Shown piece by piece: positions 31,164 through 36,277 of a stretch of 64,000 nt of DNA (the stretch's first letter is position 1; each line of letters starts with the position of its first letter). Both the position numbers and the translations under genes were made by a program. The notes beneath the pieces were generated by a model that did not search any database, was not told the DNA's origin, and saw nothing but the letters and a program-made list of their open reading frames with translations. This DNA comes from an uncultured Methylomirabilota bacterium. GTDB taxonomy: Bacteria; Methylomirabilota; Methylomirabilia; Methylomirabilales; 2-02-FULL-66-22. The stretch lies in assembly GCA_963705305.1 (NCBI GenBank), contig OY970067.1, forward strand, positions 4,352,001 through 4,416,000, in the 5' to 3' direction.

Positions 31164-31192
31164 GGGGGACGTTGCGACATTATTGACTTTAT
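31164..31192. repeat. Conserved array site, type A
   Basis: GGGGGACGTTGCGACATTATTGACTTTAT. Confidence 0.9.
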
Positions 31193-31481: not shown

Positions 31482-31907
31482 TTAACGTGAGGAAAAGTTC
31501 GATCCGATCGCTGTCGTCGCACAGGATACAACGAACCGCGCGTCGTCGATGGCGCGTTGCGCATCCGCCCTCGTGTACTCCTCTGTGGGGATGAAATCGA
31601 TGTCCCCGTAGAAGGCGAACTCGCGCTCCTTCCGCAACCACCCCGAGATCTCCGCCAATCGCTCGACCTGGCCCGCCACCTCGCCGGGAAACCGGTCCCG
31701 GTACTCCAGCAGCATCTGCCCCACGTCGTGCCACTTGGGCGGCTCGACCCCGATGCCCCGGAGCATGCCCTTCAGCGCCAGCTCCACGACCTCCTGCGCC
31801 TCGCGCACCACATCTGAAAAGGCCTCGTCCTCCAGCAACACGGACAGGACCCTGAGGCGCTTCTGCGCCTTCGTGAGATAGCTCTTGGCCAGCGAGGTGT
31901 TCGTCAT
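31482..31907 (-). CDS. HEPN domain protein (pair 1)
   Basis: AQEVVELALKG.L...PPKWHDVG; coupled to the upstream MNT by an ATGA overlap. Confidence 0.85.
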   Translation of the reverse strand: MTNTSLAKSYLTKAQKRLRVLSVLLEDEAFSDVVREAQEVVELALKGMLRGIGVEPPKWHDVGQMLLEYRDRFPGEVAGQVERLAEISGWLRKEREFAFYGDIDFIPTEEYTRADAQRAIDDARFVVSCATTAIGSNFSSR

Positions 31908-32404
31908 AGCTCGAATACCTCGCCGGGCCGGTAATCCGGCTTCAGGTCCCAGAACCAGGCATTCCCCCGCCAGATGCGGCGCGCCCCCAGGCTCTCCAGC
32001 CGAGCCCGCAGCCGGCTGAAGGCCTGCCTCAAGAAGCCATCGCGATCAAACAGGATCCGCGCATCCTCGAGCATATCCAGGTACAGCAAGCTCCCCCGCT
32101 CTACCTCGGCGGGCGTCTTGAACACGGGGCTTACCGTTGTGGCCACACCGGCCACGCGGGCCTCCGCCAGCGCGGAGCCGAGGGCTTTCTCCACCATGGC
32201 AAACTCGGCCACGCGCGCCATCCTTCCGGCCGGCAGCCGTGCGGCCACGATCAGCACGTCCAGGTCCGAGTCCGGCCGCGGCGTCCCCCGCCCGACCGAT
32301 CCGAAGACCGCAAGGGCCACCAGGCGGTCGCCGTAGTGCTGCCGGCAGGCGGCAAGGAGGTCGCAGCAAAGCCGGTCAAATTGAGAGGCCAGCGAGATCA
32401 TCAC
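31904..32404 (-). CDS. Minimal nucleotidyltransferase (MNT) (pair 1)
   Basis: FGSVGRGTPRPDSDLD. Confidence 0.9.
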   Translation of the reverse strand: MMISLASQFDRLCCDLLAACRQHYGDRLVALAVFGSVGRGTPRPDSDLDVLIVAARLPAGRMARVAEFAMVEKALGSALAEARVAGVATTVSPVFKTPAEVERGSLLYLDMLEDARILFDRDGFLRQAFSRLRARLESLGARRIWRGNAWFWDLKPDYRPGEVFEL

Positions 32405-32494: not shown

Positions 32495-32548
32495 CGAGCA
32501 TTTCGAAGTTCGAAGTTCAGAATTGCCCCCCCCAGCCTTCCATCATGC

Positions 32549-32971
32549 CTACGGCCGCTCCAGCGCGCGCAGCACTTCCCTTTTGAACGCTTCGACCTCC
32601 GGCCACTTGCGCGTGGCCACCATGAAGACGATTTGATTGTCCACCACCCCGTACTCGTGCACGAGGATGTTGCGAAACCTTCTCATCGCGCGAATCGTGC
32701 CCGCGACCTCCGGTGAGATGATGTGCGCATCTTCCAATCTGGCGAACAGGTCCTCCTCCTCGCCGGGCAGGCCCAGGCGCAACCCGGCAACGAGCAGGTT
32801 GCATATATCCAGGACACACTCAACGGAGATCTGGAGGAGGCGCTCGACCGCGCGCCGCGTTGCAGGGTTCCCCATGTACCCAGAATAGTCTGCGGGGAGG
32901 ACCGCCTTGAGCTCGGCCTCGTAGCCGTGCAGCTCGTCCAGCTTTGCCAGGACGCGGTCACGATCCAGCAT
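32549..32971 (-). CDS. DUF86/HepT-type HEPN RNase (pair 2)
   Basis: MLDRDRVLAKL..., ERLLQ.SVE..LDI, RNILVHEY (Rx4HxY). Confidence 0.9.
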   Translation of the reverse strand: MLDRDRVLAKLDELHGYEAELKAVLPADYSGYMGNPATRRAVERLLQISVECVLDICNLLVAGLRLGLPGEEEDLFARLEDAHIISPEVAGTIRAMRRFRNILVHEYGVVDNQIVFMVATRKWPEVEAFKREVLRALERP

Positions 32972-33365
32972 GCGCCACCTGCTCGAGGTAGTAGCGATAC
33001 CTATGGCGGAAATCCTCAAACGCCTTCGCCGTCCGGTACGCCAACTCGTACAGGGCCTCCTCGTCCCGGCTGTACAGTACCCGGCCCTCCCGGAGAACGC
33101 GACGGCGAATGTAGAGCGGAAGCTGCTGGAAGACGCGAATGTCGAATCCTTCGGGTGTGGTCGCCAAGTACTCCAAACGCACCTCGGCTGCCGCAGCCCC
33201 CGTCCCACTGGTCCGGCATGGGTCGAGGACCAGGCAGACGTCCACATCCGAGCGGGGCCCCTGCTCTCCCCGGACACGGCTTCCGAAGAGCACCACCGCC
33301 AACAGGCGCGTGTCCGCTGCCGCTTTTTTGAGAAGGTTGTCGATCGAGGCGCTGTCAGACGTCAT
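32958..33365 (-). CDS. MNT/MntA-type nucleotidyltransferase (pair 2)
   Basis: FGSRVRGEQGPRSDVD. Confidence 0.9.
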   Translation of the reverse strand: MTSDSASIDNLLKKAAADTRLLAVVLFGSRVRGEQGPRSDVDVCLVLDPCRTSGTGAAAAEVRLEYLATTPEGFDIRVFQQLPLYIRRRVLREGRVLYSRDEEALYELAYRTAKAFEDFRHRYRYYLEQVAHAGS

Positions 33366-33489
33366 CTGGACCAGATAGGGGACCCGGCCGTTTCTGCGCT
33401 GTCAAGGCACATTCCTCCTCGCGATGCCGAGTCCTGAACGCATCTCACACCTGCTGCCTGCCGTCGTTCCCCCGGGACCGCTCCCGGAT

Positions 33490-33650
33490 GGTCTCTCACG
33501 CCCCACCGTAGTGGTCGCATCCGGCCTGCTCGCTGCCACCCGAGCGGCCTACCCGGCCTCGTCCGGGCTGCTGAGAGCGGGAGCGGCGCGCCAGGGTCCC
33601 CCGGCGGTCCCACCGGGCCGCCACGTTGCATGAATCGCGCTGCCAGCTCC
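33490..33650 (-). ncRNA. Putative bridge/seek RNA of the IS110 element
   Basis: Stem-TGCAACGT-hairpin-GGGGGAC-stem (target guides), then GGCCGGGT-hairpin...ACTAC (donor guides); RNA ends are approximate. Confidence 0.7.
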
Positions 33651-33683
33651 CCGGGGAAGACAGACGCTGTCCCGCCGGCCGGC

Positions 33684-34889
33684 TCAGCGGACCTGCCGCT
33701 GGAGCCCGCCCGTCCGGCGTGGGTCGTACGGGGTCCCGCTCCGCCACACGCCCCAGACGACCCGGAGCACTTTCGCCGCCAGTTCGACGATCGCCTTGAA
33801 GCCAGCGAAGCGGTCCCCCTGGCGCTTCGCTTTCAAGGCGGCGAGCCGGGCCCGCCCCGCGGCGGTCCGCGCCAGTCCCAGCGCCGCGTGGTACAGCGCC
33901 CAACGCAGAAGGCTGCGCCCGCACTTGGAGATTCGCGCCTGCCCCGCGAACTGCCCGGATTGCACCCGCACGATGTCCAGCCCCGCGAGCTTCCGGAGCT
34001 GGGAGAACTTCGTGAACCAGGCGATGTCCCCGATCTCGGCCAGGAGGATCGCGGCCACGGTCGGCCCGACCCCCGGGATCGTCCGGAGGAGCGCGTAGGC
34101 CGGGAGCCGCTCGGCGAGGGGCGTCAGGGCCTGCTCGACCGCGGCGGTGCGGGCCTGAACAGCATCGACCTGGGCCCCGAGGTCCGCACAGGCCGTGGCG
34201 AGCCCGACCGGCAGCCGTCCCTTCGCCACCGCTGGGCGCCCGGGGGCCGCCGGCTCCCAGGCCTGGAGCACCGCCGGCAGCTCCGCCCGCAGGCGGTTGG
34301 GCAGGGGCTCCCCCATCGGCCCGAGGGCCGGGCGGAGGGTCGTGCGCCAGCGCGCCTTGCAGGCCGCCAGCTCGCTCCGGGCCCGGCGGAGGCACTTGAC
34401 CAAGTGCCGCAACTCGACGCGGGGGCCATCGGGCCGGCTGTAGAACAGCACCTTCCCCTGTTCGAGGAGGTCGGCGCAGTTGGCGGCGTCCTTCCGGTCG
34501 CCCTTGTCCCAGGTCCCGTCCTGGGTCCGGCGGTTCCAGTAGGCCACGCTGCTGGAGAACAGGACGACGTCGGCGCCCTGCGTCTCCAGGAACACCGCGA
34601 GGGCCTGGTGGTAGGTCCCCGTGGGCTCGAGGCCACAGACCACCTCGCGGCACCCGGTGCTCCGCTGGGCCTGCTGGATCCGCGCCCAGAGCTGGGCGAA
34701 GCCCCGGGTGGTGTTCGGGATCGTGAGGGTGGGCACGACCACCCGGGTGTGGGCCTGCCGGAGGTGCACCACGTGTTCGACTTGGGCGACGTCGATCCCG
34801 ACCAGGAGGCGCTGGCGGTTGATGCGTAAGGTGGCCTTCAGCTCCCGGAACCGCTTGACACGCGTGGCATTGTCTCGCATCGTAGCCAT
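33684..34889 (-). CDS. IS110-family DEDD recombinase/transposase
   Basis: VGIDVA, GLEPTG.Y, KGDRKDA, TIPGVGP..AA..LAEIGD, QSG, ISKCG...LR. Confidence 0.93.
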   Translation of the reverse strand: MATMRDNATRVKRFRELKATLRINRQRLLVGIDVAQVEHVVHLRQAHTRVVVPTLTIPNTTRGFAQLWARIQQAQRSTGCREVVCGLEPTGTYHQALAVFLETQGADVVLFSSSVAYWNRRTQDGTWDKGDRKDAANCADLLEQGKVLFYSRPDGPRVELRHLVKCLRRARSELAACKARWRTTLRPALGPMGEPLPNRLRAELPAVLQAWEPAAPGRPAVAKGRLPVGLATACADLGAQVDAVQARTAAVEQALTPLAERLPAYALLRTIPGVGPTVAAILLAEIGDIAWFTKFSQLRKLAGLDIVRVQSGQFAGQARISKCGRSLLRWALYHAALGLARTAAGRARLAALKAKRQGDRFAGFKAIVELAAKVLRVVWGVWRSGTPYDPRRTGGLQRQVR

Positions 34890-35275
34890 GGGGTTCTTCC
34901 TCCTCTGTACGGGGTGAGTGGATGGCTCTCTGCACACCCCTACCAATAGCGAGGAAGAACCCCTTTTGGAACCTGCCATTTTCACCAGAAGGGGCCCAGA
35001 CTGTGGGAGTCTAGTCGCTGGTACCTGGTTCATGCGGGTAATACTACGCTGCGACATTATTGACCGTATTCTGGAGCATAGGGCGCAGGGCATGGCGAGG
35101 GCCTACGGCCCGAGAGAGGCGCGAGGCGGCCGGAGCGATCGCAAGCGCACCATTTCGAAGATCGAAATTGAAAGAGCTTGTCGTGGCGATCTTTGCGTGA
35201 GGCATCGGGCCCGTTCCTCATGCCACTTGGCACGAGAACCACGGAGGCGGCTGCGACGCCCAGGGCCCGACGCAT

Positions 35276-35533
35276 TCAGGCTGTCCTACGGGTAAGTGGG
35301 TATGCGTGGCGGACACCGATAAGCCGATCGATCGAAAGATCCTCATCGAGTGCCGGCCAGTGGATACCATACCCGACCGCTGAAATCTCGTAGTTCGCCC
35401 GTTGCTCTGGTGTCGCGTTGGCAAGCTGTGGAGAGTGCCGCGCGATGTCCACCTCGTAATCCTTCCCATCAACGCGGAGCCGCAGAATTGTCCCCTGCAA
35501 GCTGGCCACACTCACTTCGTGGGCCTTATCCAT
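35276..35533 (-). CDS. DUF2442 family protein (putative antitoxin)
   Basis: L.NATPEQR.NYEIS..GYGIHWPALDEDLSI. Confidence 0.85.
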   Translation of the reverse strand: MDKAHEVSVASLQGTILRLRVDGKDYEVDIARHSPQLANATPEQRANYEISAVGYGIHWPALDEDLSIDRLIGVRHAYPLTRRTA

Positions 35534-35783
35534 TTCGCTGCTCCTGAAATCGCTGCCATTCAGCGACAATGTATTCGAAGTGCGCAAAGATTATTCGCCT
35601 AACAGTTCGTTTATCGGCTGAACTCAAGTTGTACGCGTGCGCCTCGATCGCCTCATACCCGTCTGCGTCCAACCAATATTTCGCCTCAGCATTTCCTTTG
35701 CGGCAATGGACGTGCATCGGCTCATCCCGCTCATTCGCGTAAAAGAAAAACCGCCAGCCGAGGATGAGCAGGATTGTCGGCAC
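35526..35783 (-). CDS. DUF4160 family protein (putative toxin)
   Basis: PTIL...GWRFFFYANE..EPMHVH..KG.AEAK.WL. Confidence 0.85.
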   Translation of the reverse strand: MPTILLILGWRFFFYANERDEPMHVHCRKGNAEAKYWLDADGYEAIEAHAYNLSSADKRTVRRIIFAHFEYIVAEWQRFQEQRNG

Positions 35784-35844
35784 CTTACTCGCACGCAATT
35801 CGGTGATGGTTTACCACTTTATTGGCCACGGGGAAAGAAAAGGC

Positions 35845-35945
35845 CGCAGGAGCCCCTCTCGAATCAGCACCTCTGCCGCCCGGCGGGCTTCGTCTCCCCG
35901 CGCGAGTTCCCGCTGGATGGCGCCCCATCGGTCCCCGGGACTCAC
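35845..35945 (-). pseudogene. 5' stub of a HEPN gene (pair 3), truncated
   Basis: GTG overlaps the MNT stop; ELARGDEARRAAEVLIREGL resembles the first HEPN helix, then the similarity ends. Confidence 0.55.
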
Positions 35946-36277
35946 ACGGCCACCCCGTCACGCTCGATCTCGCGCGCCAGTCTGCGCCCACTCTGCCTGG
36001 GGGCCGCGAAGCCTTGCCGCGAAAGCACGAGAGGCGAGATGAGCACGTCGGTCTGCAGGAACACCTCGTAGGCCAGGTCGAAGATCCGCCGGCGAACCGG
36101 GAGGTCATCCGAGGCCACCACGACCAGCACATCCACATCCGAATCCGGTCCCCCCTCGCCGCGTGCCCGGGAGCCGAACACGGTGCCGGCCGCCTCCTGG
36201 TCGGATAGCTCACGGCGAACCCGCCCCACGAAACCCTGTACGGCCGCCCACTCTTCCCCGGTCAGCGACTGGCCCAT
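35942..36277 (-). CDS. MNT nucleotidyltransferase (pair 3)
   Basis: FGSRARGEGGPDSDVD...EIERDGV. Confidence 0.88.
   Translation of the reverse strand: MGQSLTGEEWAAVQGFVGRVRRELSDQEAAGTVFGSRARGEGGPDSDVDVLVVVASDDLPVRRRIFDLAYEVFLQTDVLISPLVLSRQGFAAPRQSGRRLAREIERDGVAV

Follow-up and report, generated by a model that had tools for sequence, protein, structure and literature searches.

A probable bridge RNA-guided insertion sequence of the IS110 family in a multi-copy repeat of a Methylomirabilota genome

IS110-family elements and the locus under study

The layout of bridge RNAs has been described for IS621 (PMC11208160), together with handshake guides (PMC11208158) and the related seekRNAs (PMC11187229). 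Parts of these papers serve here as the model for an element found in a stretch of 64,000 nucleotides (nt) from an uncultured Methylomirabilota bacterium (contig OY970067.1, assembly GCA_963705305.1, positions 4,352,001 to 4,416,000), referred to as the window. The element, on the minus strand between window positions 33384 and 35047, is very probably an active or recently active insertion sequence (IS) of the IS110 family, whose DEDD/Ser recombinase is guided by a bridge RNA of about 197 nt.

In the portions of PMC11208160 and PMC11208158 drawn on here, IS621 of E. coli has many traits that recur at this locus. They include a recombinase made of a DEDD RuvC-like domain and a Tnp domain with a catalytic serine, a 2-nt core, the lack of terminal inverted repeats and of target duplication, and a natural target that is itself a repeat, in IS621 a repetitive extragenic palindromic (REP) sequence. 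The RNA also has the same plan, the target loop coming first and the donor loop second, both of them internal loops capped by hairpins, and with the left guide 5' and the right guide 3'. The two elements differ in that the RNA lies in the left end of IS621 and downstream of the gene here, and in enzyme length, about 326 amino acids (aa) against 401 aa, with significant alignment confined to the C-terminal domain (E about 4e-13). The core is CT in IS621 and GT here, where the handshake positions are not clearly conserved. The IS110-group elements with a downstream non-coding region and the seekRNA of ISEc21, as treated in part of PMC11187229, resemble the present element in that the bottom-strand match stands 5' of the top-strand match. 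They also share with it the absence of long subterminal inverted repeats, a recombinase of the 395-455 aa class and a circle-junction promoter, which is predicted here. ISPpu9 and ISPpu10, as far as the relevant part of PMC12288879 describes them, likewise home in one orientation into another multi-copy element, at its conserved core. For ISPpu9, however, the downstream small RNA Ssr9 was reported not to be needed for transposition, whereas the downstream RNA of the present element carries the guides. Moreover, the repeat used here is a terminus of GGGGACGTTGC type, which belongs to relics of RAYT-like Y1 transposons in a Methylomirabilota-like genome.

The mechanism is known, having been published in 2024, and the element is a clear further example of it, with no new mechanism. 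It is a natural bridge-RNA element from an environmental lineage (its relatives are labelled Methylomirabilota or NC10), with the IS110-type guide order but a 3' RNA, and the relatives are a source of orthologues for programmable recombination. IS4321 and IS5075 are reportedly IS110/IS1111 elements that target the ends of Tn21, and REP-targeting insertion sequences are said to have been treated by Tobes & Pareja in 2006.

Boundaries, copies and insertion site

A search of the 5.65-Mb genome with positions 33384-35047 recovered three full-length copies at 100%, the window copy included, one full-length copy at 82% and short fragments. The likeness between copies stops at identical bases in all four: ...GCA(G/A)C on the left, then GTAGTATT...ACGGCCGG as the element, then GTCCCCTAT on the right, the right end in its longer form being AAACGGCCGG. 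All four copies are inserted in one orientation at GCA(A/G)C-GT-CCCCTAT. GT is present at both junctions in 4/4 copies, so the 2-nt core is ambiguous. The ends are not inverted repeats, and the target is not duplicated beyond the core. The boundaries are as follows.

33384..35047, minus strand: whole IS110-family element, 1664 bp including the left GT core, from copy comparison within the genome
35048..35052, minus strand: left target half-site, GCAGC where the repeat consensus has GCAAC, with the AT-rich module GTCAATAATGTC ahead of it, from sequence and copy comparison
33375..33383, minus strand: right core GT (33382-33383), right target CCCC (33378-33381) and TAT (33375-33377); GTCCCCTAT follows all four genome copies

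Excision of the element in silico leaves ...GTCAATAATGTC-GCAGC-GT-CCCC-TATC. An earlier note, made from the sequence alone, had claimed that deleting 33384-35047 restores a type A site. This holds for the 2-nt GT core and for the identity of the site with its neighbours at 31175, 32477 and 40699, but not for position -2, which is G and not A. The prediction that other copies would sit in GGGGAC-GTTG-type sites was borne out both in this genome and in the relatives. Contigs from four public runs covering 32900-35500 are short pieces in which neither an empty site nor a circle junction was seen, and they are uninformative on expression and mobility; one of them bridges the left junction, and one loose end is the flank of the 82% copy. 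A look through the public runs listed for the stretch turned up no RNA run among them.

Two further traces of the IS110 family occur in the genome. A related element has left an orphan right end, some 45 nt with TTGACA and ACGGCCGG, which abuts GTCCCC at G000 C1 4098738-4098782 on the minus strand, adjoining another IS110-family gene (4097416) and a repeat site (4097056). An unrelated second IS110-family element is present in three copies (99.9%) at G000 C1 355639, 961484 and 2107597, one of them at a distance of about 1.5 kb from copy B of the present element. Its ends and flanks differ (...GGGC-GAATCTGATGC...), which made it unusable as a source of covariation.

The recombinase and the left end

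33684..34889, minus strand: recombinase gene, 401 aa plus stop, from domain matches and alignment with IS621
34890..35045, minus strand: left non-coding end, with a perfect hairpin of 13 bp (34951-34963 / 34890-34902) spanning the ribosome-binding site GAGGAGG

The recombinase has an N-terminal DEDD RuvC-like domain (PF01548, E 3.4e-17, residues 30-186) and a C-terminal Tnp domain (PF02371, E 7.8e-22), and it scores 210.1 bits against the 'IS110 family RNA-guided transposase' model NF033542, whose cut-off is 140. A sequence search of the PDB returned the IS621 and ISCro4 transposases only, at about 4e-13. In the alignment, the catalytic DEDD and Ser of IS621 have their counterparts in D33, E88, D131, D134 and S311, the QSG motif containing S311 standing opposite ESG. 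The 401-aa family includes 660 metagenome proteins at E <= 1e-20, of which the best 120 are 398-421 aa long. More than 100 metagenome clusters of this length are 86-90% identical to the recombinase, mostly on short contigs. No named ISfinder member was identified among these relatives; where they have a name, it is only 'IS110 family transposase', from bins labelled Methylomirabilis or NC10.

In the left-end hairpin, GGGGUUCUUCCUC pairs with the ribosome-binding region GAGGAAGAACCCC directly before the recombinase ATG, and the structure is probably a translational brake. Near-identical elements (L016, L019, L020) stand on short contigs in bins labelled Anaeromyxobacteraceae, Anaerolineae and Phycisphaerae. 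This placement could reflect horizontal spread or mis-binning, and mis-binning is the more likely for contigs of 1.8-4 kb.

The bridge RNA

33466..33662, minus strand: predicted bridge RNA, about 197 nt, with closing stem, target-binding loop and donor-binding loop, from conservation and covariation
33603..33622, minus strand: hairpin capping the target-binding loop, GGCGGCCC-GGU-GGGACCGCC (helix 3: 93.5% of cells paired, one compensatory change of G-C to A-U)
33523..33548, minus strand: hairpin capping the donor-binding loop (helix 6: 5/9 pairs with compensatory changes)

Within the 300 nt 3' of the stop codon lies a block that is about 95% conserved in a copy only 82% alike overall. This RNA was aligned with nine relatives from public genomes, and the consensus fold, simplified to 45 pairs, was tested on 11 sequences. 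The layout is a closing stem and two successive internal loops, each with its own hairpin as a cap. The pairs are formed in 96.7% of cells, compared with 91.8% after shuffling. Two-sided changes occur at 11/45 pairs against 3.1 expected; none of 500 shuffles gave as many, and controls with a slid alignment gave at most 4. These compensatory changes support the fold, most strongly in the second hairpin and in the helix beneath the donor loop. For the target loop, the basal stem proposed before, GCAGCGCG with CGCGCCGC, is one of two possible registers, the other being that of RNAalifold. This 4-bp stem is invariant, so covariation cannot choose between them.

A covariance model, R1, was built from the alignment. 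It detects the RNA in 6/151 genomes of the phylum, the window's own genome counted, including 4/7 other genomes of the same genus and one of another family. It also detects it in 24 of 80 metagenome loci that had been fetched with a 15-base pattern; the 56 loci without the RNA were discarded as chance matches to the pattern. In the genome G124, unrelated DNA takes the place of the right end after the bridge RNA in L036 and L039, and L043, L045 and L047 are truncated at the 5' side. The element family decays or rearranges often in G124.

Guides and their agreement with the flanks

33623..33630, minus strand: left target guide UGCAACGU, in the same sense as left target plus core, from motif position and covariation in relatives
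33596..33602, minus strand: right target guide GGGGGAC, complementary to the core together with the right target, from motif position and covariation in relatives
33549..33558, minus strand: putative left donor guide, GGCCGGGU at 33551-33558, identical to the right end and core, continuing with AG, the 2 nt that open the left end, from sequence match
33508..33512, minus strand: putative right donor guide ACUAC, complementary to the core and to the 3 nt after it in the left end, from sequence match

The four guide motifs were located exactly where they had been reported, with GCAACGT starting at 33629, GGGGAC at 33601, GGCCGGGT at 33558 and ACTAC at 33512. The 10 nt from 33558, GGCCGGGTAG, equal the end-to-end junction of the element. 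To estimate the chance of such an arrangement, the 3' non-coding region of 286 nt was shuffled 20,000 times with its dinucleotides preserved. The 7-mer of left target plus core followed within 60 nt by GGGGAC appeared in 82/20,000 shuffles, and GGCCGGGT followed within 80 nt by ACTAC in 3/20,000. The target pair and the donor pair together appeared in none.

The reading of the left guide as left target plus core fits the repeat consensus GCAAC-GT, but the agreement of TGCAACGT with its own flank CGCAGCGT is only 6/8. It is 7/8 with the flanks of the other two identical copies (TGCAGC-GT) and 7/8 with that of the 82% copy. Likewise, GGGGGAC is the complement of core plus right target through GTCCCC, but the right flank of the window copy is GTCCCCT and not the GTCCCCC that had been written for it, so a seventh pair would be a G-T wobble. 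The guides fit the repeat consensus better than the window copy's own site. As for the donor loop, GGCCGGGT and ACTAC fit the joined ends in sequence, and their role as guides is suggested by analogy, the ends being invariant.

The relatives provide flanks with which the guides can be compared. Their right ends are all ACGGCCGG followed by GT except in L033 and L038, which have a changed base, and their recognisable left ends read GT-AGTAT, with GG in L014. The left flank has the form N4-6 followed by GT in 19/20 relatives (GG again in L014), and it agrees with the left guide of the same element at 4 or more of 6 positions in 19/20, the remaining one, L013, agreeing at 3. All 34 right flanks begin with GT and 33 of them with GTCCC; L023 has GTGCCC, which fits its own guide. 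The retargeted elements are these.

L023: left target guide AGCTTCGT and right target guide GGGCAC; site AGCTTC-GT-GCCC
L029, L132: guide ACCTACGT; site ACCTAC-GT
L041, L103: guide CCCTACGT; site CCCTAC-GT
L080: guide GCTACGT; site GCTAC-GT
L014, L015, L042: guide CGGGAC; site GTCCCG
Natural variants: ACCTACGU; AGCUUCGU with GGGGCAC

The clearest single case of retargeting is L023, a complete switch of both halves. For the left guide, 79/102 non-core positions match in 17 distinct pairs of guide and flank compared with 65.4 after permutation, a value reached in 5/50,000 permutations, and for the right guide the contiguous match in 28 distinct pairs is 107 compared with 94.8 (165/50,000); since the relatives are kin, these figures overstate independence, which is to be counted among the objections below. 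The association is visible at position -3, where guide T meets flank T in 5/5 pairs and guide A meets flank A in 11/12, with A:T once (Fisher 0.001). L057, L130, L037, L031 and L098 were left out of the pair counts, as the left-guide pattern failed or the RNA was partial, and L012 was entered by hand from the alignment. The target guides thus change with the flanks in the relatives, and the earlier proposal, which would have failed in the absence of such covariation, stands in this respect. Natural retargeting among the close relatives has reached at least four different half-sites on the left and two on the right, and this series is useful for learning which guide positions count.

The probable route of transposition

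The following steps are modelled on IS621 (parts of PMC11208160 and PMC11208158), and the chemistry in particular is taken by analogy. The element would leave as a circle, whose joined ends would form the junction promoter TTGACA-17-TAGTAT.

33400..33405, minus strand: TTGACA in the right end; joining would place it ahead of TAGTAT, made of the core T and the left end, at a spacing of 17 nt, as a candidate promoter

Most relatives keep both TTGACA and the GTAGTAT end, and a few have variants. The bridge RNA would bind the recombinase. In its first loop, the left guide GCAACGU would pair with the bottom strand to the left of the core and the right guide GGGGGAC with the top strand from the core rightwards, and in the second loop GGCCGGGU and ACUAC would read the joined element ends in the same manner. 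The RNA may in this way bring junction and target together, and strands would be exchanged at the common GT.

Points against the proposed RNA guidance and alternative explanations

Several observations weigh against a bridge RNA acting in this way. The guide is imperfect at the sites where its own element is found, as position -2 is G in all three identical copies and A in the guide, in addition to the wobble at the seventh right position. Among the relatives, L012 is an exception, with the left target guide CTAAC in a CCTAC site. In the ten distinct pairs in which the right guide predicts G at the fourth right-target position, the flank has G in 3, C in 5, A in 1 and T in 1. The element ends are invariant, so the donor guides are beyond the reach of covariation, and the first core base of the left donor guide varies (GGCCGG-GT, -TT and -CT) while the right junctions are all GG-GT. 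This variation is not predicted by the published model. The basal stem of the target loop does not vary in the alignment, and single-sequence folding is unexceptional (-117.7 kcal/mol, z -1.35, with 21/200 shuffles equally stable). No Rfam 15 family covers the RNA in a search of 32500-36000 at permissive thresholds; the sole match, mir-4900 (E 0.29), is spurious and caused by the left-end hairpin. A consensus scan of the linear element for promoters and terminators of sigma-70 type found none.

The mismatch at -2 deserves separate attention. G is found there in 3/3 identical copies, compared with 79/86 A and 7/86 G in empty sites classed as repeat-like (Fisher 0.0038), a crude class defined by at least 50% A+T in the 13 nt upstream. 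In addition, TAT follows 4/4 copies and only 9/86 empty sites, and no guide reads TAT. A search of the whole genome with nhmmer and the RNA alignment returned the four known copies, a match at E 0.001 (5519213-5519274) and one at E 2.3, with no second RNA carrying a GCAGC guide, so the G(-2) flanks are not explained by another guide RNA. Handshake guides like those of IS621 were considered and rejected as the cause of G(-2). ACUAC is invariably followed by a G, for which pairing with C(-1) would be possible; the base after that G is G here, C in the 82% copy and A in most relatives, untied to the flank at -2. A shifted crossover point was also rejected, being incompatible with the right junction. 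A rule of retention or selection outside the published model is conceivable, though rather unlikely: positions next to the core could be read by a handshake-like step or a protein contact, or matched insertions could be lost while mismatched ones are 'locked'. If mismatched insertions alone persist, the GCAAC, CCTAC, GCTAC and GCTTC/GTGCCC variants would form a natural series for studying the directionality of bridge recombination.

A related explanation keeps the functional bridge-RNA insertion sequence but regards the copies seen today as immobilised leftovers, in which the mismatch at -2 blocks RNA-guided excision or turnover. The excess of G(-2) over the empty sites speaks for it. However, that excess comes from a sample of three insertions and depends on the crude definition of the repeat-like class, and the 82% copy lies in a perfectly matching GCAAC site. 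Furthermore, copy-out transposition that keeps the donor copy, as reported in the preprint 10.1101/2025.10.25.684509, would remove the need for such a bias. This explanation is considered unlikely.

It is very improbable that the element belongs to the IS1111 type and carries a seekRNA, an assignment to which the long non-coding region downstream of the gene might lead. The right non-coding end measures 300 nt compared with about 158 nt on the left, and a downstream non-coding region is the usual IS1111 arrangement in the passages of PMC11187229 and PMC11208160 that concern it. Nevertheless, the same source, PMC11187229, notes in part IS110-type elements with a downstream non-coding region. 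The IS1111 group has subterminal inverted repeats of 7-17 bp. No such repeat is found here: complementary words shared by the two terminal segments of 60 nt reach 5 nt at most, and 0/25 of the longest inverted pairs link the element ends. The recombinase lengths given in PMC11187229 are 330-350 aa for IS1111 and 395-455 aa for the IS110 subgroup, in comparison with 401 aa for the present recombinase. The bottom-strand match (33623-33630) lies 5' of the top-strand match (33596-33602), which is the IS110 order and is reversed in IS1111. Judged by the traits that this part of PMC11187229 uses, the comparison points to the IS110 group. The earlier assignment to a bi-specific RNA of IS110/IS1111 type is kept for the two-loop RNA and the IS110-family enzyme, and narrowed to an IS110-type element with a 3' RNA.

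That the matches are not guides at all, and are instead a captured or rearranged piece of the repeat or a product of chance in GC-rich DNA while the protein picks the target, is scarcely credible: GGGGAC alone occurs in 33% of the shuffles of the region, ACTAC has only 5 nt, the guide mismatches its own flank at -2 and the public runs listed yielded no expression data, but the target halves are split, one of them inverted, astride a conserved hairpin, unlike a captured repeat, the full layout never arose by shuffling, and the guides change with the flanks in relatives up to the complete switch of L023.

The target repeat and its genomic context

The targeted sequence, GCAAC-GT-CCCC, forms the conserved core of a repeat with many copies, similar to REP sequences or terminal inverted repeats, that belongs to relics of RAYT-like tyrosine transposons with termini of GGGGACGTTGC/GGGGACGT type. 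GCA[AG]CGTCCCC has 94 occurrences in the genome. The wider pattern NCA[AG]CGTCCCC has 187 sites, 86 of which carry an AT-rich module directly upstream, with classes that include GTCAATAATGTC, GGTAATTAAGGTT, GGAGAATAAGGAA and GACAGATAAT. Five outward-facing inverted pairs of the repeat are 1033-1058 bp apart. A RAYT-like frame is among the two longest frames in 3/6 repeat pairs examined. One such frame was scanned, giving 27.7 bits for PF01797 (cut-off 23) and, for the 'REP-associated tyrosine transposase' model NF047646, E 1.6e-13 but 50.8 bits, below the cut-off of 80. No obvious palindrome was noticed in GTCAATAATGTCGCAACGTCCCC on inspection by eye of the unfolded sequence.

The earlier suggestion that the element homes into the sites of an array is correct in that array sites are targeted, but no more than the 11-13-nt core GCAAC-GT-CCCC(C), common to all classes of the repeat, is specified by the guides, and the element copies occupy two different site classes. 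Since the target core is part of a genome-wide repeat, the element homes wherever that repeat lies, including the array of toxin-antitoxin cassettes in the window. The core of this Y1-transposon-like repeat has thus been stable enough for a second mobile element to become tuned to it.

The neighbours of the insertion in the window are an MNT/HepT toxin-antitoxin pair, 18 nt downstream of it, and a DUF4160/DUF2442 pair on its upstream side. The array is made of small two-gene cassettes on the minus strand between 31165 and 40699. Its sites, all in the same orientation, are at 31175, 31330, 32437, 32477, the occupied site, 38777, 39822 and 40699, and fall into two classes, GTCAATAATGTC-GCAAC and GGTAATTAAGGTT-ACAAC. 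The cassettes named here are the following.

32552-33365, minus strand: MNT/HepT, array cassette
31907-32404, minus strand: nucleotidyltransferase, array cassette
35279-35798, minus strand: DUF4160/DUF2442, array cassette

Many copies of the repeat are followed by a short tandem duplication of its right half, consisting of ACGTCCCC and a variable 4-8-mer (for example ACGTCCCCTATT twice). Such duplications are found, among others, at G000 C1 503096, 481008, 3156923 and 770534, and they look like the footprint of some process of insertion or excision at the same site.

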